64,000 nt of DNA from Chthoniobacterales bacterium (GTDB lineage Bacteria > Verrucomicrobiota > Verrucomicrobiia > Chthoniobacterales > Chthoniobacteraceae). Within the stretch, counting starts at the first letter, position 1. The number at the start of each line of letters is the position of its first letter. The position numbers and the translations under genes were made by a program. The stretch spans positions 64,001-128,000 of the forward strand of contig JBBQZX010000006.1 of assembly GCA_038207335.1 (NCBI GenBank). Reading direction: 5' to 3'. This document shows, in pieces, positions 39,668 to 50,316 of this stretch. The notes beneath the pieces are model-generated. The model was not told the DNA's origin, ran no database searches, and saw only the letters and a program-made list of their open reading frames with translations.

Positions 39668-41233
39668 TTAGTATTTGCGATGAAAGACGGTGACGTCGTC
39701 GGGCGCGGTGTCGATGGGGACGAGGTCGAAGTTTTGCTCGAGGTGCTGGAAGAGCAGGGGATTCGTGTGGCGGAAGCGGAGGTCTTCGCGTCCGTCTAGC
39801 TTTACGTCCTGGATCATGACCCATGCGACATTGTGCGCGGCCATGTCGGCGAGTTCCTCGGCCTCCTGCTCGGGCGTGGCGGGGTAGATGAGGTAGATGG
39901 GTTTAATCGGCGAGAGGGTGTCGGTGGCGGCGTAGAGGCCGGGGAAGTAGGGGGCGAAGAGGACGCCTTCGCCGGGACGCGCGAGGGCGTGCGTGATGTG
40001 CTGTGCGGTGTCGAGGATGGCGGCTTCTTTCGGTGAAAGGCGCATCGCTTTTCCGCCGAGCTCGCGCTCGATGTAGGAGCTCGCGGGGCGCATCGCGAGC
40101 GAGTAAAAGCCGGAGTAATAGATGGTCGGCGGCAGGCTGAGGCCGAGTAGTGCGAGGGTGGCAAATGTGGGGGCGAAGCAGCGAATGCGCGGTCCGAGGG
40201 TATGTGCGAGCGCCGCGGTGCCGAGGATCATCGCGGGGACGCTGTGGGTGAGGTGCCAGGCGTCGGGCCGCGAGAAGGCATAGTGCGTGTAGGTCAATGC
40301 CACACAGCTTCCCGCGGCGAAGGCGGGCTCGCTGATCGAGATTTTTCTCCCAGCGAATAGGAAGCGAAGGAGCGCGACCGCAATGAAGACGAGGAGCACG
40401 ACGAAGAGCCAGCCCTCGGCGACGGCGTCCCAACGCGCGTGGCCATAGAGCCACTCGGAGACCTCCCAAGGCCACGGGACGGGCATGGCGAGGTTTGTGC
40501 CGAATTTCACGTCGATGCGGAGCTGCTCGGCGTAGGCCGCGAAGTATCCGGGGACGAAGATGGCGATGGCGATTTGCGGGAGGTATCCGAGGGCGATGCC
40601 GCCGGCCCACGCGCCGGTGCGCTGGAGGAATGCGAGGACGCCGCCGCGCACGATGAGGAGGATGATGAGCGCGAATGCGACGGCGAGATAGAGGCCGTGG
40701 TTTCGCCCCATGAACGCCATGAAGCCGATGAACAGCCCGCTGATGAAATGCTGCCGGATGGTGGGCCTTTCGATGTGCCGCACGCCGACGTAGATGGCGA
40801 TGAGGGAGATGGATTGCTCGAAGATTTTGTAACGCGGAAACATCCACAGCGAGAGGGTGATCGCGAGGGGCAGGAGGAAATACCAGCGCCGCGAAATGCG
40901 GCACGCCGCGAGCAAACCAAGCGTGAGCCCGATCCACGAAAAGATGACGCAGGCGAGGCGGAGCGCGAGGAGGCTATCGCCGAAGATCAAGCTCCAGAGA
41001 GCACTCCAGACGTATCGCCCGGGATCGTAGGCCTGGAAATCGCGGATTGGAACAAAGCCGACTTTGAGGGCTTTCATGCCGTACCAGAGGAATCCCTCGT
41101 CGGCGAAATCGATGTCGGTGCCGAGGCTTCCGTCGATGGCGAAGACGCCGAAAAGCAGCGCGGCGGCGAGCAGGCAGAGCGCGATGCCGAGGCCGTGCTG
41201 GCGCAGATTTTCGCGAAATGGGGAGCGAGTCAT
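39668..41233 (-). CDS. Polytopic membrane protein, probable GT-C-fold (GtrII/ArnT-like) glycosyltransferase
   Basis: About 12 TM helices; DE motif (ADEGF) in the loop after TM1 followed by P.RDF..Y.PG; C-terminal soluble domain; adjacent to a GtrB-like GT2. Confidence 0.6.
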   Translation of the reverse strand: MTRSPFRENLRQHGLGIALCLLAAALLFGVFAIDGSLGTDIDFADEGFLWYGMKALKVGFVPIRDFQAYDPGRYVWSALWSLIFGDSLLALRLACVIFSWIGLTLGLLAACRISRRWYFLLPLAITLSLWMFPRYKIFEQSISLIAIYVGVRHIERPTIRQHFISGLFIGFMAFMGRNHGLYLAVAFALIILLIVRGGVLAFLQRTGAWAGGIALGYLPQIAIAIFVPGYFAAYAEQLRIDVKFGTNLAMPVPWPWEVSEWLYGHARWDAVAEGWLFVVLLVFIAVALLRFLFAGRKISISEPAFAAGSCVALTYTHYAFSRPDAWHLTHSVPAMILGTAALAHTLGPRIRCFAPTFATLALLGLSLPPTIYYSGFYSLAMRPASSYIERELGGKAMRLSPKEAAILDTAQHITHALARPGEGVLFAPYFPGLYAATDTLSPIKPIYLIYPATPEQEAEELADMAAHNVAWVMIQDVKLDGREDLRFRHTNPLLFQHLEQNFDLVPIDTAPDDVTVFHRKY

Positions 41234-41336
41234 TCGGCGCGGAGTGTGCGGAAAAGCGGGACGCGGGCAAGGCGCGGGAACTTTGGATTGCGTTGACGCT
41301 CCATGCTCGCGCGATAGCGTCGGCGGCTTTCGCGCC

Positions 41337-42179
41337 ATGCCAGTTTCGACTCCCACCGCCGCCGCCGATCCGCGCGCTTTGGCCGCGCACCTGAAGCGCG
41401 GGGAGGATGGCGTGTGGTACGCGGGCGAGCGTGAGCCGATCTCATACGCGGAGGATGGGAATGCGCAGTGTTTCGAGCTGGAGGAGAAGTCGTTTTGGTT
41501 CGCGCACCGCTGCGCATGTCTTCGCGCTGTGGTGCGGAGCTTTCCGCCCGCTGGCGCGATTTTCGACATCGGCGGCGGCAATGGCTTTGTGGCGAAGACG
41601 CTGATCGACGCGGGCTTTGAGACGGTGCTCGTGGAGCCGGGCGAGACGGGCGCGCGCAACGCGGCGCGGCGCGGGGTGCCGACGGTGATTTGCGCGACGC
41701 TGGCGACGGCGAAATTCGCGGACAGCTCGCTCCCGGCGGTCGGGATGTTCGACGTGCTGGAGCATGTGGAGGACGACGAGGGATTTCTCCGCGAGGTGCA
41801 TCGCTGTCTCGCGCCGGGCGGGCGGCTTTATCTCACGGTTCCGGCATTCTCGTGGCTCTGGTCTCACGATGACGTGAGCGCCGGTCATTTCCGCCGCTAC
41901 ACGCTCGCGAGCCTTTCGGAGCGTGTGAAAGCCGCCGGAATCGCGCCGCTTTTCGCGAGCTACTTTTTCTCGATCCTCCCGCTGCCGCTGCTTGCGCTGC
42001 GATCGCTGCCGAGCCTCTTCGGACGCCGCGCGCTGCCGCCGCAGAGCTACGGAAAACTTCACAAGCCGCGCGCACGCGGGCTGACGGATCGCGTGTGGGA
42101 ATCGGAGCTGCGCCGGATCGAAAACGGGCGCGCGATTGCATTCGGGAGCAGTTGTCTGCTCGTCGCGGAGAAACGCTGA
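41337..42179 (+). CDS. Class I SAM-dependent methyltransferase
   Basis: FWF..R, DIGGGNG, FDVLEH..DD, LAPGG...LTVPA...LWS..D...GH.RRY. Confidence 0.88.
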   Translation: MPVSTPTAAADPRALAAHLKRGEDGVWYAGEREPISYAEDGNAQCFELEEKSFWFAHRCACLRAVVRSFPPAGAIFDIGGGNGFVAKTLIDAGFETVLVEPGETGARNAARRGVPTVICATLATAKFADSSLPAVGMFDVLEHVEDDEGFLREVHRCLAPGGRLYLTVPAFSWLWSHDDVSAGHFRRYTLASLSERVKAAGIAPLFASYFFSILPLPLLALRSLPSLFGRRALPPQSYGKLHKPRARGLTDRVWESELRRIENGRAIAFGSSCLLVAEKR

Positions 42180-43861: not shown

Positions 43862-46381
43862 TTACGCCTTCCGCACGCGGCAGGCGAAGCACTTGTAGGC
43901 TTGCTGACCGCTGAGGTTGTCGAAGTAGCGGTCGTCCACGAGGAGGTTTGCGGGCTCATAGCGCGGGTCGCCGAATTCGTCGCCCATCGCCTGCGCGGGG
44001 CCGAAGCTGTTCGGGACAAAAATCGTATCCTCACGGATGCCGTCCCACACGAGCGCGGTGCCGGTCACGGAGCCGCGCGGACTTTCCACCACGAGTTTGT
44101 CGCCGTCAGCGACTCCCGCCGACGCGGCTGCTTTCGGATGAAGCTGGATGAGTCGCACACCGTTCATTTGCTTGCCGAGATACGTCCATTGCGTGACGCC
44201 TGCGAAGTGCACGACGCTCGCGCGGCCGATCATTCCCATGAGCGGAAACTCTGCGTGGACCTTGCCGTCGCTGAGCCCGCCGAGCGTCACATTCGGCGTG
44301 ACCGCGCCGGGATTGATCGGGTTCTGGACGAGTTCCTGTGCGTATTCGATCGACGGATTTTTTCCCGTGACCTCGGGATGCGTGTAGAAAAGCGGAAGCG
44401 CAGCGTGCCCTGCGGTGCCGAGCTTTTTGTCGAGGTCGGCGGTGTGGATTTCGACTTTGCCGCTCGGAGTGAGAAAGCGTTTGCCCCTGTTCTTCGGGTC
44501 GAGCGATTCGGCGGCGGCGTACCACGACTTGTGGTCGAGGTAGAGCGTGCTGACGCTCGGCTTGTCTTCCGCGGGGCAGGGCCAGCGGAGCGGTTCGGTG
44601 CGCGCCTCCATCCGCGCCTGCGTCATGCCGCCGACGCCGGGCGTCCGCGCGACGAATTCGACCCACAGCTTTCCGTAGTCCTTCCATTCAGCCAGCAGGT
44701 TGCCGGTCCAGTATTCGGGCGCATTTTTCTTGTCGTGGCGCGCCATCGCGGCAGCGAGGTCAATCCAGATTTCGATGTCGGTCCGCGACTCGCCGACGCG
44801 CGGGACGGCGGCGTGCTGCCAGCGGATGGAGCGGTCGTCGCGCCGCATGTAAACGCCGTCCATTTCAAAGCCGCTGGCGACTGGCAGGATAACGTCGGCG
44901 AAATACGCGGGCTCCTCCATGAAGAGGCCGGTGAAGACGTAGAACTCAAGCTGCTTGAAGGCTTCGCGGACCTTTGCAGTGTTGGCGCTGCCGATGATCG
45001 GGTTGCCCTCGGTGACGATCGCCTTGAGCTGATACGGGCGTTTATTGAGGATCGACTCCGCAAACCAGTCCGGCCCAACCGGCAGCGACGTCCCTTTTTC
45101 CGGCATCTTCGTTTCCGCGGCGACCGGCGGGAGATTTAGCCCGCCCGGCCAGGTGTTGTGCATGAAGTTACAGCCGCCGCCATTCACGCCGATATTGCCG
45201 GTGATCGCGGCGAGAAAAGTGAGCGCACGGTAAGTGTCGAAGGCGCTGAGTTGATGGGAGATTCCCGCGTTGCAAAAGATCGCGGCGGGTTTCGCCTTCG
45301 CATAATCCTCGGCAATCTTTTTGATCTTCGCAGCAGGCACGCCGGTCACTCCTTCGGCCCACTCGGGCGTGTATTGTTTCTCGCCGAGATGCGTCTTCAA
45401 TTCGTCGAATCCGAGCACCCACTTCGCCACGAAAGCCTTGTCGTGAAGCCCCTTTGCAATGATGTGCGACAGCATCGCGAGCACGAGCGCGAGGTCGGTG
45501 TGCGGCTTCGGCGCGAGCCATTCATCCGCCTGTGCGCCGGTCGGTGTGAGGCGCGGGTCGACGACGACGAGCCTGGCTTTCATCTTCGCCCGCTCGCGGA
45601 GCAGATAGGCGAAAGTTACGGGGTGCGTCTCGGCTTGGTTGGTGCCGAAGAAGAGCAGGTATTTCGAGCTGCCGAGGTCTTCTTTCCCCGTGTTTTCGTC
45701 GAGCCCGTAGCCGTTCGTGAAGTTTCCCATTCCGAACGTCGCCGCCAGCGCGTTGCCTCCCGCGTCGTTGCAGACCGGGCCGACGTCCGTGTCGTTCGGC
45801 GAGCCGAGCAGCGTGAAAAATCGGCCGATGATCGAGCCCGTACCGCGCTGCAAACGACCGCTCGTTTTATTGGCAATCGCGTGCCCCTCGCCGGCGTCCC
45901 GCAGTGCGATGAATTTCTGCGCGATCAGGTCCAGCGCTTCATCCCACGAGCACGCCTCGAACTTCGACTCGGCCGCCCCTTTCTCGCCGCCGACGCGCTT
46001 CAGCGGCTTCGTGAGGCGGAAGCGATTATACACGAGCTGCGTCATCATCGGCGCCTTCACGCAGATGCCGCCGTCCTGCACCGGGTCGCCGGTTTCGCCG
46101 GTCACGTCGATGATTCGCCCGTCTTTGAGATGCACTTTGAGGCGGCAGCACGAGTTGCAAAACTGGCATACGGAATCGACGATTTTGTCCGCCTGCAGCG
46201 CGCCGCTCTGTTTTGTAAAATCAAACGTGGACGCGGGCGTGGAAGCCGCTGGGGAATGTCCAACAGTCGCGGCTTCCGCCTCGCGGCTGACGAATGGCGC
46301 GGTGCTCGCGGCGAGGGCGCCGAGCGCACCTCCGCGGAGAAAGCTGCGGCGTGAGACGGCGTTTGAATCGGTGGTTCTCAT
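43862..46381 (-). CDS. Tat-exported Mo/W-bisPGD oxidoreductase (DMSO reductase superfamily) catalytic subunit, substrate unknown
   Basis: Tat motif SRRSFLR; [4Fe-4S] motif CQFCNSCC...ICVK; RL.KPLKR.G..G..KF...SWDEA; probable Mo-ligand Cys in GPVCNDAG; N.AETHP, VVDPR, ADVILP, TPSGK.E; C-terminal molydopterin-binding domain. SD AAAGGA precedes ATG 46381. Confidence 0.92.
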   Translation of the reverse strand: MRTTDSNAVSRRSFLRGGALGALAASTAPFVSREAEAATVGHSPAASTPASTFDFTKQSGALQADKIVDSVCQFCNSCCRLKVHLKDGRIIDVTGETGDPVQDGGICVKAPMMTQLVYNRFRLTKPLKRVGGEKGAAESKFEACSWDEALDLIAQKFIALRDAGEGHAIANKTSGRLQRGTGSIIGRFFTLLGSPNDTDVGPVCNDAGGNALAATFGMGNFTNGYGLDENTGKEDLGSSKYLLFFGTNQAETHPVTFAYLLRERAKMKARLVVVDPRLTPTGAQADEWLAPKPHTDLALVLAMLSHIIAKGLHDKAFVAKWVLGFDELKTHLGEKQYTPEWAEGVTGVPAAKIKKIAEDYAKAKPAAIFCNAGISHQLSAFDTYRALTFLAAITGNIGVNGGGCNFMHNTWPGGLNLPPVAAETKMPEKGTSLPVGPDWFAESILNKRPYQLKAIVTEGNPIIGSANTAKVREAFKQLEFYVFTGLFMEEPAYFADVILPVASGFEMDGVYMRRDDRSIRWQHAAVPRVGESRTDIEIWIDLAAAMARHDKKNAPEYWTGNLLAEWKDYGKLWVEFVARTPGVGGMTQARMEARTEPLRWPCPAEDKPSVSTLYLDHKSWYAAAESLDPKNRGKRFLTPSGKVEIHTADLDKKLGTAGHAALPLFYTHPEVTGKNPSIEYAQELVQNPINPGAVTPNVTLGGLSDGKVHAEFPLMGMIGRASVVHFAGVTQWTYLGKQMNGVRLIQLHPKAAASAGVADGDKLVVESPRGSVTGTALVWDGIREDTIFVPNSFGPAQAMGDEFGDPRYEPANLLVDDRYFDNLSGQQAYKCFACRVRKA

Positions 46382-46409
46382 GGAGTGTCCTTTCGTGCGG
46401 TGCACGTTC

Positions 46410-46427
46410 ATGCGCGCATCGGCATAT
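46410..46427. promoter_or_regulatory. Candidate ArsR/SmtB-type operator in the divergent promoter
   Basis: ATG-N10-CATAT (ATGCGCGCATCGGCATAT). A second inverted repeat GCATG-N7-CATGC at 46470-46487 overlaps the regulator's start codon. Confidence 0.35.
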
Positions 46428-46482
46428 TTACCCTCCGCGTTTTTCGGTCGAGCAAATCCAGCCGCCGACGCATGATTTTCAC

Positions 46483-46788
46483 ATGCCAACGATCGATTGC
46501 ATGGAAATCTTGAAAGCCCTCGCCGACCGGACGCGGCTGCGGCTGATCAAGCTCTTGATCGCAAACGACTCCGGCGTGAGCGAACTCACGGAGGCGCTCG
46601 GGATTTCGCAGTACAACACGTCGAAGCACTTGCGCGTGCTGCGCGAGGCTGGAGTCGTGGATGTGCGGGCGCTCGGCACGCGACGCGAGTATTTCATCGA
46701 GCCGGATTTCCGTCGGCGGCTGCAGCGTGAAGGACCGGTGCTGGATTTTGGATGCTGCACGTTTCGGTTCGATCAGTTGCCGAACTGA
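46483..46788 (+). CDS. ArsR/SmtB-family transcriptional regulator with C-terminal vicinal cysteines
   Basis: LKALAD.TRL.L..LL, V.EL...LGISQ...SKHL.VLREAG.V; C-terminal DFGCCTFRF. Confidence 0.92.
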   Translation: MPTIDCMEILKALADRTRLRLIKLLIANDSGVSELTEALGISQYNTSKHLRVLREAGVVDVRALGTRREYFIEPDFRRRLQREGPVLDFGCCTFRFDQLPN

Positions 46789-46924: not shown

Positions 46925-47800
46925 ATGTTTCCTTCACTCACTCGTTTCAAGAATGTCACCGCATTGTCACTCGTCTCGGTCGCGCTTCCGGTTGGGGCTT
47001 TTGCTGAGACACTGAAGATCAACGGCTCGACGACCGTCAATTTGCCAGCGGCGGAGGCTGCGGAAAATCTGCGCGCCGAGAAGAAAATGGATATTCAGGT
47101 GGATACGCAGGGCGGGAGTTCGGGCGGCATTTCGATGCTCGGCGAGGGGCTCGTGCAAATCGGAATGGCGTCGAAGCCCGTGAGCGATGACGACCGCGCG
47201 AAGTTTCCGAAAGTGACGTTCAAGGAGATTCACGTCGGCGAGGATGCGGTCGCGATCATCGTTTCGAAGGACGTATGGGATGGCGGCGTTCACGAGATGA
47301 GCAAGGCACAGGTGAAGGACATCTACGAGGGGAAGATCACCAACTGGAAAGAGGTTGGCGGCAAGTCGCAGAAGATTGTGTTTTTCAACAAAGAGCCGGG
47401 GCGTGGGACGTGGGAGGTCTTTGCGCACTGGGCGTATGGCGACCCGAAGAAAGCGCCGGAGGTGAGCTTCCCGGAGGTCGGCGGGAATGAAGAGACGCGG
47501 AACAAAGTGGCCTCCACGCGCGGGGCGATGTCGCAGCTTTCCTCCTCGTGGGCGGATGGGAAAAAGGTCTTCGCGCTCGGGATTGAGGGGAAAGATGGGA
47601 AGGTGATCCAGCCGACGAATGAGAACATCGCGACGCATGCGTATCCGATGAGCCGTCCGCTGTTTTTGCTGACGAATGGCGAGCCGACGGGCGAGGCGAA
47701 AACGTTCGTTGAGTATATGCTCTCGCCTGCGGGACAGGCGCTCGTACGGAAGCACGGATACCTCTCGTTGGATCAAGTCGCCTCGCCGGCTGCGAAGTAG
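46925..47800 (+). CDS. pstS: PstS-family periplasmic oxyanion-binding protein (atypical binding motif)
   Basis: Sec signal; INGSTTV, GGSSGG, IGMASK, DAVAIIV, IY.GKITNWKEVGG, YP.SRPLF; NKEPGRGT in place of R...SGT. Confidence 0.8.
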   Translation: MFPSLTRFKNVTALSLVSVALPVGAFAETLKINGSTTVNLPAAEAAENLRAEKKMDIQVDTQGGSSGGISMLGEGLVQIGMASKPVSDDDRAKFPKVTFKEIHVGEDAVAIIVSKDVWDGGVHEMSKAQVKDIYEGKITNWKEVGGKSQKIVFFNKEPGRGTWEVFAHWAYGDPKKAPEVSFPEVGGNEETRNKVASTRGAMSQLSSSWADGKKVFALGIEGKDGKVIQPTNENIATHAYPMSRPLFLLTNGEPTGEAKTFVEYMLSPAGQALVRKHGYLSLDQVASPAAK

Positions 47801-47812
47801 TCGCTTGCGGCG

Positions 47813-48682
47813 ATGACGAAGTTTTTCAGCGTCGCATTCAGCCTCTTAGCGCTCGCGTTTTTCGCTGTGTTGCTAGGCACGTTTGCTTGGCAGAGCTTGC
47901 CTGTGTGGAGGCATGAAGGGCTGGCGTATATCACCGGCACGAAGTGGTATTTCCGGACGCATCAATTCGGCGCGCTGCCGATGATTTATGGGACGATCGT
48001 CGTCGCGGCGGTGGCGCTTGTGCTCGCGGCGCCTGTTGGTTTTGCGTCTGCGATTTTCACCGCGGAGTATCTGCCGCGGCGCGCGCGAATCGCGGTGAAA
48101 GTGCTCATCGAGCTGCTTGCGGGGATTCCCTCGGTAATCTACGGACTGCTCGGAATTCTGCTTCTGAGGAACTGGATTTACGACCTGTTCACGCGCTTCG
48201 ACATCGCAAGCGGCGACACGCTGCTGACGGCCGGAGTGCTGCTCGCGGTGATGATTTTGCCGACGGTCGTCACGCTCAGCGACGACGCGCTACGCGGTGT
48301 CGGGAGCGCGCAGCGGCAGGCGGCACGGGCGCTCGGACTCACGCGCGCGGAGACGATTTTCTCGGTCTCGCTGCGGCAGAGCGGGCGCGGGTTGATGTCC
48401 GCGCTTTTGCTCGGGCTCGGGCGCGCGCTGGGCGAGACGATCGCGGTTTTCCTCGTCGTCGGGCGGCAGGACAACAACGTGCCAGAGCACTGGTTTTCAT
48501 TAGCGCCGCTGCTCGAATCCGGGCAGACGCTGGCCAGCAAACTTGGCGGCTCCGAGACGAACATCGCGTATGGCGATTCTCTGCATTGGGGGGCGGTCGT
48601 CGGACTCGGATTGCTCCTGCTGCTCATCGTCGCGGCAACGACGATCGCGGGGACTTGGAAACGCAAACCTGACGATGCGTAA
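47813..48682 (+). CDS. pstC: Phosphate-type ABC permease PstC
   Basis: FGALPMIYGT, ELLAGIPSVIYG, MILPT, LGLGRALGETIAV. Confidence 0.85.
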   Translation: MTKFFSVAFSLLALAFFAVLLGTFAWQSLPVWRHEGLAYITGTKWYFRTHQFGALPMIYGTIVVAAVALVLAAPVGFASAIFTAEYLPRRARIAVKVLIELLAGIPSVIYGLLGILLLRNWIYDLFTRFDIASGDTLLTAGVLLAVMILPTVVTLSDDALRGVGSAQRQAARALGLTRAETIFSVSLRQSGRGLMSALLLGLGRALGETIAVFLVVGRQDNNVPEHWFSLAPLLESGQTLASKLGGSETNIAYGDSLHWGAVVGLGLLLLLIVAATTIAGTWKRKPDDA

Positions 48683-49523
48683 GGCCGCGGATCGGCTTCT
48701 GGCTTTGATTTGCGGGGCATCGGCGCTTTTTGTCTGCGCACTGCTGCTCGGGCTGATTTTTGTGATCTGGCAGCGCGGCGCACCGGCGATGAGCTGGCGT
48801 TTTCTCACCGAGCAAATCCGTCAGGTCGGCGCGGACGGCGGCATTTTCTACAACCTAGTCGGCACGGTGATCCTCATCGTCACGGCGCTCTTTGTCTGTG
48901 CGCCGATCGCCGTCGGCTTCGCGCTGCTCGAGCGCGTTTTCCTCCGATCGGCAGGCGCGCGGCGAGGGCTCACGCTGTTCCTTTATTTGCTGAATGGGCT
49001 GCCTTCGATCGTGTTCGGCATCTTCGGCTTCCTCGTTTTTGTGAAGTGGCTCGGCTGGGGAAAATCGTGGCTCGCGGGCGGAATTTTACTCGCGGCGATG
49101 ATCCTGCCGACCGTCACGGTTGCGCTCGTCGAGAGGATCAAGGCATTGCCTTCCAAATACACCGAAGCGGCAGCCGCGCTTGGGCTCACGCAGTCGCAAA
49201 TCATCTGGTCGGTGATCCTGCCGCAGTCGTGGGCCGGACTGCTCACGGGCTCGCTGCTCGGGCTCGCGCGGGCGGCGGGCGAGACGGCGCCGATCATGTT
49301 CACCGCCACGATTTTTGCGGGCGCGTCGCTGCCAACAGGGATTAAGGACAGCCCGGTGCTTTCGCTGCCATATCACATTTTTATTCTCGCGCAGGACTCG
49401 TTTGATCCTGCGGTTGGCGCAAAGCTGTGGGGCTCCGCGCTCGTGCTGCTCGCGCTCGTCGTCGGGCTCAGCCTCATCGCGCTGCCGAGCCGCCTGAAAT
49501 TGCATGAAGAAGCCAATGTCTGA
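48675..49523 (+). CDS. pstA: Phosphate-type ABC permease PstA
   Basis: GGI...LVGT, L.GLPSIVFGIFG, EAAAALG, LARAAGETAP..FT; 8-nt overlap with pstC. Confidence 0.85.
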   Translation: MRKAADRLLALICGASALFVCALLLGLIFVIWQRGAPAMSWRFLTEQIRQVGADGGIFYNLVGTVILIVTALFVCAPIAVGFALLERVFLRSAGARRGLTLFLYLLNGLPSIVFGIFGFLVFVKWLGWGKSWLAGGILLAAMILPTVTVALVERIKALPSKYTEAAAALGLTQSQIIWSVILPQSWAGLLTGSLLGLARAAGETAPIMFTATIFAGASLPTGIKDSPVLSLPYHIFILAQDSFDPAVGAKLWGSALVLLALVVGLSLIALPSRLKLHEEANV

Positions 49524-50316
49524 ACCTGTCTGCCAGCCCGCCGTCCGCGCCGATGCGCCCGTGCTTTCCGCCCGCGATGTGTCGGTCACGGCGAATGGAA
49601 AGCCACTGCTGCGAAACGTGCGATTCGATGTCCGCGCAGGTCAGGTTTTCGGAATCATTGGCCCATCCGGCGCAGGGAAGAGCACGCTGTTGCGGACGCT
49701 GAACCGGCTTGTGGACTTGATTCCCGCGCTGCGCGTGAGCGGCGACGTGCGGCTGCGCGGCGAGTCGATTTACGCGCCGGGCGTAGATGTGAATGCGTTG
49801 CGCGTCCGCATCGGGATGCTGTTTCAGCAGCCCGTGGTCTTCCCCGGCAGCATCGGAGAGAACGTGCTTTTCGGGGCGAAACGGCTTCGGCGGCTCGGGC
49901 GCGAGGAGCGGCACGCTCTGGTCGAGAGCGCGCTGCGCGAAGCGGCGCTTTGGGATGAAGTAAAGGACCGTCTCCGCCATTCGGCGTTCGCACTTTCCGT
50001 CGGGCAGCAGCAGCGACTCTGCCTGGCGCGAGCGCTGGCGGTGCAGCCCGAGGTTCTGCTGATGGACGAGCCGACGAGCGCGCTCGACCCGCGCTCCACG
50101 GCGGCGATTGAGGAACTCATCACACGGCTGCGCGAACGGCACACGATCGTGCTAGTCACGCACAACGTCGCGCAGGCGCGGCGCGTCACCGACTGGATCG
50201 CGTGCGTCTGCGTACGCGACGGGGCGGGGGAGATCGTGGAAAGCGCGTGCTGCGACGCGGTGCTGGACAATCCGCAATGCCGCGAGGTGATCGAGTACCT
50301 CGAACACGCGGGGTGA
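49516..50316 (+). CDS. pstB: Phosphate-type ABC ATPase PstB with a Cys-rich C-terminus
   Basis: GPSGAGKST, LNRL.D, GMLFQQP, AALWDEVKDRL, LSVGQQQRLCLAR, LLMDEPTSALDP, VTHN..QA.R; 8-nt overlap with pstA. Confidence 0.88.
   Translation: MSEPVCQPAVRADAPVLSARDVSVTANGKPLLRNVRFDVRAGQVFGIIGPSGAGKSTLLRTLNRLVDLIPALRVSGDVRLRGESIYAPGVDVNALRVRIGMLFQQPVVFPGSIGENVLFGAKRLRRLGREERHALVESALREAALWDEVKDRLRHSAFALSVGQQQRLCLARALAVQPEVLLMDEPTSALDPRSTAAIEELITRLRERHTIVLVTHNVAQARRVTDWIACVCVRDGAGEIVESACCDAVLDNPQCREVIEYLEHAG

Follow-up and report, generated by a model that had tools for sequence, protein, structure and literature searches.

To our knowledge, the molybdoenzymes include only two arsenite oxidases (Aio and Arx) and one respiratory arsenate reductase (Arr), and soil arsenic-cycling surveys, as far as we know, count these three only. 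In AioA the cluster is 3Fe-4S, molybdenum (Mo) has no ligand from the protein, and the twin-arginine translocation (Tat) signal is carried by a Rieske partner. Two residues are regarded as essential in formate dehydrogenases (Fdh): the His next to the metal ligand and an Arg in the ...LRGQNNVQG loop. Oxidases can use general electron acceptors; periplasmic reductases, by contrast, usually have a quinol-linked donor of their own. Here we describe a gene of the MopB (dimethyl sulfoxide, DMSO, reductase) superfamily in a stretch of 64,000 nucleotides from a Chthoniobacterales bacterium (GenBank assembly GCA_038207335.1, contig JBBQZX010000006.1, positions 64,001 to 128,000), hereafter the window, with coordinates counted from its first letter. 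The gene lies at 43862-46381 on the minus strand. Its relatives, here called the MopB family, form a separate clade relative to the references of our tree, recur in arsenic (ars) islands and are tentative candidates for arsenite oxidation in the periplasm.

The molybdoenzyme and its family

The protein matches 29 NCBIfam models, in every case below the cut-off. The best match is Fdh-alpha (TIGR01591, 308 bits against a cut-off of 666.25) and the second best PhsA (NF012032, 278.8 against 694). Others are NasC (235.9 against 1100), DmsA/YnfE (194.5 against 777.7), ArrA (NF041714, 191.7 against 1600), NapA (NF010055, 116.2 against 904; TIGR01706, 103.9 against 930.55), TorA (95.8 against 909), AioA (TIGR02693, 67.3 against 359.05, where the Thermus AioA reference itself scores 1467.7) and TtrA (43.6 against 1750). 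Among solved structures the closest in sequence are Fdh chains (7bkb, E = 6e-59), PsrA (2vpw) and ArrA (6cz7), with AioA far off at 30 bits, and the ESM Atlas returned generic Fdh or Mo-oxidoreductase clusters only. In a library clustered at 50% identity the family appears as one full-length representative (61% identical); next come P0124 (42%), P0125 (43%) and P0128 (37%), and then a group at 35-37%. Eleven of these more distant representatives were scanned, none of which reached any NCBIfam cut-off. The same library holds a fusion of an Fe-S protein with MopB (P0133).

A tree of 44 rows (IQ-TREE quick search, Thermus AioA as outgroup, support from the Shimodaira-Hasegawa-like approximate likelihood-ratio test, SH-aLRT, only) unites the 19 MopB family rows in one clade with a support of 100 and a stem of 0.72; many reference rows are long-branched, and the row set is without ArrA, ArxA, PsrA, TtrA, SrrA, IdrA and bona fide NapA. 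P0124, P0125 and P0128 are sister to the family (100), followed by the 35-37% group (99), and the clade of E. coli PhsA joins outside all of these (88). Further out lie DmsA with the BisC type, FdhF, three Nas-like rows, the YdeP type and Thermus AioA. Relative to the tree's references, the MopB family is a separate clade. An earlier reading made from the sequence alone (the sequence-only reading) had proposed a subfamily of its own on motifs, and the model scores, the drop in identity and the tree all bear this out: nesting within FdhF, PhsA, DmsA/BisC, Nas-like, YdeP-like and AioA rows is absent from the tree, with ArrA, NapA and TtrA compared by hidden Markov model (HMM) scores only.

The family is large and scattered. 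A word-indexed search returned at least 2389 proteins at E up to 0.001 among 7997 scored candidates, and the best 120 of these 2389 are 71-100% identical to the window's protein. Public names of the relatives are generic, such as 'anaerobic selenocysteine-containing dehydrogenase', or 'Formate dehydrogenase' in Chthoniobacter flavus Ellin428. Among species-representative genomes we found 215 stretches encoding a relative, and the locus analyses rest on the best 80 of these (64-84% identical). Six phyla are represented among them: Verrucomicrobiota, Planctomycetota, Acidobacteriota, Cyanobacteriota (Nostoc, Scytonema, Chroococcidiopsis, Microcoleus), Actinomycetota (Amycolatopsis, Streptomyces, Nonomuraea, Streptosporangium) and Myxococcota (one carrier genome). 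At 284 of 840 alignment positions, at least 64 of 65 family rows have the same residue. Among other genomes sampled, the gene was present in 0 of 300 of the window's phylum, 4 of 200 of its order and 0 of 22 of its taxonomic family, and this patchy occurrence is the pattern of an accessory gene. In the tree a Vicinamibacterales row falls within the Verrucomicrobiota group (95-99) and the two Planctomycetota rows lie apart from each other, a mixing of phyla that fits gene transfer. Searching a plasmid collection with tblastn gave one conjugative Nostoc plasmid with a member (69%), the next matches being FdhF and PhsA at about 25-31%; ArrA, ArxA, PsrA, TtrA, SrrA and IdrA were not found by name among the matches listed (60 of 759 and 60 of 351). 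The plasmid, pC052_A of Nostoc sp. C052 (542 kb, typed conjugative), carries its member at 175104-177620, with a GNAT gene 52 bases on.

The gene itself encodes 839 amino acids (aa) plus a stop codon, and residues are numbered from Met1 at 46381. The surrounding open frame extends over 43862-46489 (minus strand), and translation from the ATG at 46381 begins MRTTDSNAVSRRSFLRGGALGALAA...; this start is favoured because a palindrome (Table 1) overlaps the upstream ATG of the publicly called 849-aa product. Scans around the gene gave 0 sigma-70 promoter-like sites and 4 terminator-like sites against 4.6 expected, which is chance level. Three Pfam domains, PF04879 Molybdop_Fe4S4 (E = 4.5e-12, 46.2 bits, cut-off 22.7), PF00384 Molybdopterin (E = 1.6e-48, 166 bits, cut-off 24) and PF01568 Molydop_binding (E = 1.2e-15, 57.9 bits, cut-off 26.8), together with fold matches at a probability of 1.00, make the protein a member of the MopB superfamily.

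The sequence-only reading had given the gene's limits and a C-x2-C-x3-C-x27-C motif followed by VK, and both agree exactly with the open reading frame (ORF), its translation and the PF04879 match. It had also named GPVCNDAG as the context of the Mo ligand: the motif is present (VGPVCNDAGG is invariant in 34 family sequences), and HMMER aligns its Cys204 with selenocysteine 140 of E. coli FdhH (followed there by His141) and with the ligand Cys of FdhA and SoFdhA. All of the extra Cys residues it listed are found, in CNAG (Cys370, within FCNAGISHQ), GGGCNF (Cys404) and KCFAC (Cys831 and Cys834). The loop GGGCNFMHNTWPG stands in place of the ...NPLRGQNNVQG loop of Fdh and is invariant in the 34 sequences, with low model confidence there. 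Across full-length family rows, Cys72, 75, 79, 107, 204, 370, 404 and 602 are kept in 65 of 65, Cys831 and Cys834 in 63 of 65, and Cys78 and Cys144 are not conserved. Because Cys602 (in WPCP, common to the family and Fdh chains) and Cys834 are shared with other MopB proteins, only Cys370, Cys404 and Cys831 are special to this family. Cys834 aligns with the C of the ...YKACAVRV terminus of the only other Fe4S4-domain MopB in the genome, a Nas-like protein encoded outside the window (G000:C6:1278-3557, minus strand) with RQCMATS at the ligand, which is probably an assimilatory nitrate reductase.

What the sequence-only reading had passed over is the protein's own Tat signal. A motif of the S/T-R-R-x-F-L-K type, SRRSFLRGGALGALAA, precedes a hydrophobic stretch. 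Its RR is invariant in the 34-sequence family alignment A1 and kept in 63 of 64 full-length homologues (the 64th ORF lacks the N-terminus), so that proteins of the family are predicted to be Tat-exported; TatC is encoded in the window's genome. An AlphaFold model built from the 34 family sequences has a mean predicted local distance difference test (pLDDT) of 74.2 and a predicted template modelling score (pTM) of 0.79. With Foldseek, FdhH, Desulfovibrio desulfuricans NapA, other Fdh, ArrA, acetylene hydratase and PsrA are about equidistant from it (template modelling score, TM, 0.69-0.81 by target; 22-24% identity).

The sister clade (P0124, P0125 and P0128, at 37-43%) shares the CND ligand context, a Tat signal and WPCP or APCP, and P0124 a C-terminal CxxC; it differs in being without Cys370 and Cys404. 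On metagenome contigs (L099-L102) it belongs to a multi-subunit system below every NCBIfam equivalog cut-off. The order there is histidine kinase, sigma-54 response regulator, MopB, 4Fe-4S dicluster protein, small protein, NarJ/TorD-type chaperone, cytochrome c, cytochrome-bd-I-like membrane protein and cytochrome c, and the three loci scanned held no ars gene. The MopB family is a one-subunit member whose nearest relatives are multi-subunit, which is of enzymological interest. Open full-text literature, including the accessible parts of PMC6620896, PMC10579247, PMC7331816 and PMC11502398, contained no description of the clade (subscription journals lie outside this coverage). New in the MopB family are the clade, its subunit make-up compared with its nearest kin, and its genomic setting.

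Genomic setting in the window and in six phyla

The absence of partner subunits that the sequence-only reading had noted is confirmed for the window: among the 16 ORFs scanned with Pfam between 37.5 and 52.3 kb there is no Fe-S beta subunit, Rieske protein, NrfD or TorD/NarJ. The single-subunit make-up holds in 76 of 77 loci, one locus having an ORF with a ferredoxin C-x2-C-x2-C-x3-CP motif within 4 kb. A Rieske ORF was also absent from 16 related loci scanned in full. ORFs bearing CxxCH occur at 8 loci, and these include ArsS radical SAM (S-adenosylmethionine) genes, which are not cytochromes. The sequence-only reading had proposed a soluble periplasmic carrier, with c-type cytochromes of the genome as candidates. 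The genome has 48 cytochrome c domain matches (22 over the cut-off), none of them near the MopB gene.

To describe the neighbours, all ORFs of the 80 loci were clustered, recurring clusters were named by Pfam and NCBIfam, and counts were made over the 66 related loci whose flanking sequence comes to 4 kb or more. In 40 of these 66 there is at least one ars or phosphate-transport cluster member (Table 2). Representatives of the neighbours exceed the NCBIfam cut-offs for arsenosugar ArsM (583 bits against 400), ArsS (419 and 414 against 300), ACR3 (422 against 283), ArsC (245 against 158), ArsH (384 against 292) and ArsO (528 against 425); for the neighbouring methyltransferases of Chthoniobacterales the ArsM models are the best match, below cut-off. 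Within 2.5 kb of the MopB gene, a zone that makes up 36.7% of flank bases, lie 82 of the 126 ars/phosphate ORFs (those that share an operon do not count as independent). The 5.17-Mb genome of the window has four such ars/phosphate places, which gives a rough base rate.

Several loci are tightly packed. In the cyanobacterium Chroococcidiopsis (L028) arsM is followed after 12 bases by MopB and after another 32 bases by arsS. One strand of L019 carries an ArsM-like gene, 31 bases, MopB, 108 bases and pstSCAB. Three cyanobacterial loci (L047, L068, L072) have MopB and then arsR, a pstS-like gene, aquaporin or ACR3, arsH and arsC, while in Streptomyces (L079) arsO lies 101 bases upstream of MopB. 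A PHO4 gene is found at 19 bases (L018) and 24 bases (L051) from MopB. By this recurrent linkage to ArsR and ars genes the MopB family is a member of ars operons or arsenic islands. The arsenic and phosphate context, which the sequence-only reading did not include, is the only evidence on the substrate.

In the window the gene is divergent from an ArsR-family regulator gene, upstream of it, and from a PstS-C-A-B transporter on the same strand as arsR (Table 1). The start and Cys pattern of arsR were set by alignment with 12 like ArsRs. The MopB-adjacent ArsRs of Actinomycetota and Cyanobacteriota carry ELCVCDL(C), which is the type 1 As(III) site of R773 ArsR according to the accessible part of PMC11868830. 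The window ArsR and 11 similar proteins of Verrucomicrobiota, Acidobacteriota and Planctomycetota are without CVC and show a single Cys near the N-terminus and GCC at the C-terminus. Of the four types of As(III) site in the same part of that paper, none has this three-Cys layout.

Table 1. Features of the window around the MopB gene
Feature	Position	Strand	Basis
MopB catalytic subunit, 839 aa, distinct clade, candidate arsenic-related molybdoenzyme	43862..46381	-	ORF, Pfam, homologues
C-terminal KCFAC, Cys831 and Cys834	43880..43894	-	sequence
Active-site loop GGGCNFMHNTWPG, Cys404 and His408	45143..45181	-	HMMER alignment to 7bkb
VGPVCNDAGG, Cys204 at the Mo-ligand position, Asn205 where Fdh has His	45755..45784	-	HMMER alignment
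[4Fe-4S] (FS0) motif C72-x2-C75-x3-C79-x27-C107-VK	46061..46168	-	Pfam PF04879
Twin-arginine signal peptide, residues 1-37, SRRSFL at 10-15	46271..46381	-	sequence; putative cleavage after AEA
Imperfect palindrome ATGCGC-N5-GGCATAT, candidate ArsR operator	46410..46427	.	within the 101 bases that separate the start codons of MopB and arsR
arsR, 101 aa, ArsR/SmtB metalloregulator, Cys6 and C-terminal GCC	46483..46788	+	NCBIfam HTH_metalloreg 71.9 bits, cut-off 55
pstS-like phosphate-binding protein, signal peptide	46925..47800	+	PBP_like_2 5.2e-34; PstS family 186 bits, below cut-off 206.6
pstC permease	47813..48682	+	TIGR02138 231.4 bits, cut-off 196.45
pstA permease	48675..49523	+	TIGR00974 189.3 bits, just below cut-off 193.45
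pstB ATPase	49504..50316	+	TIGR00972 285.7 bits, below cut-off 343.2; best of 189 families

Table 2. Neighbours of the MopB gene in 66 related loci
Neighbour	Loci
ArsR	25/66
Specific ars gene (any)	23/66
Phosphate transporter (any)	23/66
ArsM-like methyltransferase	11/66
PstS	11/66
PHO4/Pit	9/66
ArsO	8/66
PstB	8/66
PstC/PstA	7/66
ArsC	6/66
ACR3	5/66
Aquaporin (MIP)	4/66
ArsS	4/66

The palindrome between the two start codons is kept in five of the six other Chthoniobacterales loci with this ArsR type (L011, L009, L006, L008 and L015; L077 differs), and a conserved TTTTT-N-GTCGAG follows about 20 bases on. It has 1 match in the 5.17-Mb genome. As a marker of a genome-wide ars regulon it was rejected, given that no copy occurs at the other ars loci. 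These are scattered: an ArsM-like gene adjoins ArsS (G000:C1:251242-253243), an aquaporin adjoins an ArsC-like phosphatase (G000:C8:141225-142284), and a second ArsR of the window type (G000:C3:181307-181603) is 68% identical to that of L015. A tblastn search of the genome did not find ACR3.

Some further genes were observed near the family. Downstream of the window's MopB gene and convergent to it are a GNAT-domain ORF, a family 2 glycosyltransferase and a methyltransferase. GNAT acetyltransferase was considered as a conserved partner and rejected: it recurs at only 3 further loci, all of Nostoc, and the window's GNAT is unrelated. A 663-aa ORF at 39668-41659 (minus strand) has no Pfam or NCBIfam match and is overlapped by plus-strand ORFs, one of which (41064-42179) has a methyltransferase domain, so either strand may be coding. 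In five loci, all Chthoniobacterales (L005, L008, L009, L011 and L015), the gene of a 217-284-aa signal-peptide protein with a C-terminal Phe stands 3-13 bases before MopB (for example L015:7137-7991, plus strand). The protein is probably an outer-membrane beta-barrel; it belongs to no Pfam or NCBIfam family, with one weak OMP_b-brl match (E = 0.02), and the window's genome has no copy of the gene. Two further members of this cluster, in L001 and the acidobacterial L025, overlap the MopB ORF as called. A fusion of an ArsR helix-turn-helix with GNAT, which we presume may be related to the arsinothricin-resistance protein ArsN, lies near MopB in two actinomycete loci (L036:10486-11337 and L065:3809-4714, both minus strand). 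Finally, a CobW/G3E-family GTPase below all NCBIfam cut-offs is a recurrent neighbour of MopB, ArsR and PHO4 genes, seen at 7 of 66 loci (L045:6803-7957, plus strand, and 6 more) from Actinomycetota, Acidobacteriota, Planctomycetota and Verrucomicrobiota.

Proposed arsenite oxidation and its rivals

The reading that we favour, with a probability of roughly 40%, is that the MopB family enzyme is induced by As(III) and oxidises As(III), or else methylarsenite or Sb(III), in the periplasm without a dedicated partner. As(III) entering the cell would release the ArsR repressor from the palindrome shared by arsR and MopB, and the MopB gene and the arsR-pstSCAB operon would then be induced together. 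At the Mo centre As(III) might give up two electrons, which would travel by way of the one [4Fe-4S] cluster to an acceptor in the periplasm that is not dedicated to this enzyme, for example a c-type cytochrome or a cupredoxin. Arsenate made outside could be kept out, or taken up under control, by way of the co-induced phosphate transporter, and in other hosts the products of the ArsM, ArsS, ArsC, ACR3 and aquaporin genes may handle the arsenic that gets in.

Four observations point to oxidation. Most of the hosts are aerobes. A donor module is not encoded, and an oxidase can use general periplasmic carriers. Carriers are without the known enzymes: AioA was over the cut-off in 0 of 40 carrier genomes, and ArrA had a match in 0 of 41, a search that had no positive control. 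Lastly, pst/pho operons beside aioBA and pstS1 under the control of ArsR are the pattern of As(III) oxidisers (PMC7533571, in the part accessible), which the MopB loci resemble.

A fuller form of this proposal is somewhat more doubtful. It makes the family a third, independently evolved arsenite oxidase, partnerless, Cys-ligated and Tat-exported, which would have spread by gene transfer, along with ars and pst genes, among aerobic soil bacteria and cyanobacteria; it would give an As(III)-oxidising activity to organisms without Aio or Arx and feed its product to the flanking phosphate-transporter and arsenosugar genes. If true, this would be a third kind of bacterial arsenite oxidase and a candidate for arsenic redox activity in organisms without aio, arx and arr. 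A further arsenic-linked molybdoenzyme would then change the gene inventories of arsenic cycling, with Chthoniobacterales, Gemmataceae, Acidobacteriota, actinomycetes and lichen- and crust-forming cyanobacteria named as common carriers.

A number of points weigh against arsenite oxidation. The neighbourhood gives the element and not the direction, and adjacency to ArsM and ArsS fits a supplier of As(III) equally well. No conserved electron acceptor gene was found at the MopB loci, and Actinomycetota are generally without soluble c-type cytochromes. Since AioA and ArrA are both rare anyway, and the ArrA search lacked a positive control, their absence from carriers is weak evidence. The palindrome occurs nowhere else in the genome and so does not tie the MopB gene to other ars loci; moreover, it always precedes arsR, which may be the only gene under its control. 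In the structural model pLDDT is below 50 at the active-site loops 200-206 and 408-414 (numbering +1 relative to Met1). ArrA and ArxA are outside the row set of the tree, and 26 of 66 loci (17 of them from heterocystous cyanobacteria) have no ars or phosphate neighbour at all.

The main rival, which we consider unlikely, reverses the direction. In that case the enzyme would be a periplasmic reductase of pentavalent arsenic (arsenate, methylarsenate, dimethylarsenate or trimethylarsine oxide), similar to ArrA or to the trimethylamine N-oxide (TMAO) and DMSO reductases, that keeps arsenate from the phosphate transporters or feeds trivalent arsenic to ArsM and ArsS. The arsenic context serves it just as well, in particular the tight arsM-MopB-arsS order of L028; Cys-ligated Mo and an N-terminal [4Fe-4S] cluster are also traits of ArrA, and Shewanella ArrA (6cz7) is among the top structural matches. 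The accessible parts of the literature named no methylarsenate-reducing enzyme beyond the glutathione-linked route cited in reference lists. However, 76 of 77 loci are without an ArrB-type Fe-S protein, a NapC/TorC-type cytochrome or an NrfD anchor, and the ArrA model remains at 191.7 of the 1600 bits needed. ArsM and ArsS are cytoplasmic, whereas the MopB enzyme is predicted to be exported, and it might be argued that an aerobe has nothing obvious to gain from producing As(III), the more toxic form, outside the cell. Pst genes beside the enzyme are, besides, the oxidiser pattern of PMC7533571 (in the part accessible).

An Fdh or other non-arsenic oxidoreductase, placed in ars islands by shared mobility only, appears improbable. 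Public names of the relatives, the best HMM and the best solved relatives all speak for Fdh, as do the 26 of 66 loci without arsenic or phosphate context. Nonetheless, the TIGR01591 score (308 bits) stays below its cut-off (666.25), Asn205 replaces the His adjacent to the ligand and His408 the loop Arg, and the ars/phosphate association extends over six phyla and is concentrated within 2.5 kb.

No greater probability is given to an enzyme of a related metalloid or of sulfur-arsenic compounds (antimonite oxidation, thioarsenate turnover), or to a non-redox reaction like that of acetylene hydratase. PhsA is the nearest named clade (SH-aLRT 88) and the second-best HMM (278.8 bits), and acetylene hydratase (2e7z), a MopB protein that is likewise partnerless, matches as well as others (TM 0.78, 23%). 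The family-specific Cys370, Cys404 and Cys831 could bind soft metalloids, and type 1 ArsR responds to Sb(III) too. Yet nothing singles out antimony over arsenic, and rhodanese, sulfur-carrier and sulfur-oxidation genes do not recur in the 16 loci scanned in full.

Least probable is a phosphite or hypophosphite oxidase supplying periplasmic phosphate to the adjoining Pst or Pit, with ArsR-type regulators sensing a non-arsenic signal: phosphate transporters and specific ars genes occur equally often (at 23 of 66 loci each), PHO4-family genes abut MopB in L018 (19 bases) and L051 (24 bases), some 15 loci encode Pst/Pit, with ArsR present or absent, and no specific ars gene, and the window locus itself is arsR-pstSCAB only, but no PhoB/PhoR-type regulator recurs whereas ArsR does (with the As(III)-type ELCVCDL(C) in two phyla), ArsC, ACR3, ArsM, ArsS, ArsH and ArsO have no role in phosphorus use, and we know of no molybdoenzyme that oxidises phosphite.

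Comparison with described MopB enzymes

Of the described enzymes, Fdh of the FdhF/FdhA type (E. coli FdhH, 1fdi and 1aa6; 7bkb) shares the three Pfam domains, the FS0 motif with Lys after the fourth Cys, Cys at the ligand position and the WPCP motif, and FdhH (1fdi) is the best Foldseek match of MopB (TM 0.78 by target). The two differ in sequence (23% identity), in the predicted export and arsenic context of the MopB family, and in the active site, where MopB has Asn205 for the His after the ligand and His408 for the Arg of the aligned 7bkb loop. An active-site loop with Cys404, His408 and Asn205 is seen in no solved structure. PhsA and PsrA are likewise Tat-exported and Cys-ligated MopB proteins, PhsA being the nearest named clade in the tree and PsrA (2vpw) reaching a TM of 0.74 at 24% identity. 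They have their own B (Fe-S) and C (membrane) subunits, which adjoin phsA in L084, whereas the MopB gene has none. NapA of D. desulfuricans (2nap, 2v45) is, like the family, a single-subunit, Tat-exported and Cys-ligated MopB protein with one [4Fe-4S] cluster and gives the highest TM (0.81 by target), though at 23% identity and with no nap genes near the MopB gene.

The arsenic enzymes differ mainly in their partners. With AioAB the MopB family would share periplasmic As(III) oxidation in aerobes with soluble acceptors, as proposed here, and the adjacent pst/pho genes (PMC7533571, in the part accessible). AioA falls outside the family in the tree, however, no Rieske ORF (AioB) lies near the MopB gene, and the MopB protein has four cluster Cys residues, Cys204 and its own Tat signal. 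ArrA and ArxA are arsenic oxyanion enzymes with Cys-ligated Mo and a [4Fe-4S] cluster and are Tat-exported, and ArrA (6cz7) is one of the best matches in structure (TM 0.69 by target, 22% identity); they differ in that the MopB loci are without ArrB/ArxB, ArxC and ArxD genes and in that the MopB hosts are mostly aerobes. Overall, we think that ArxA, for the direction of its reaction, would be the working analogue of the MopB family.

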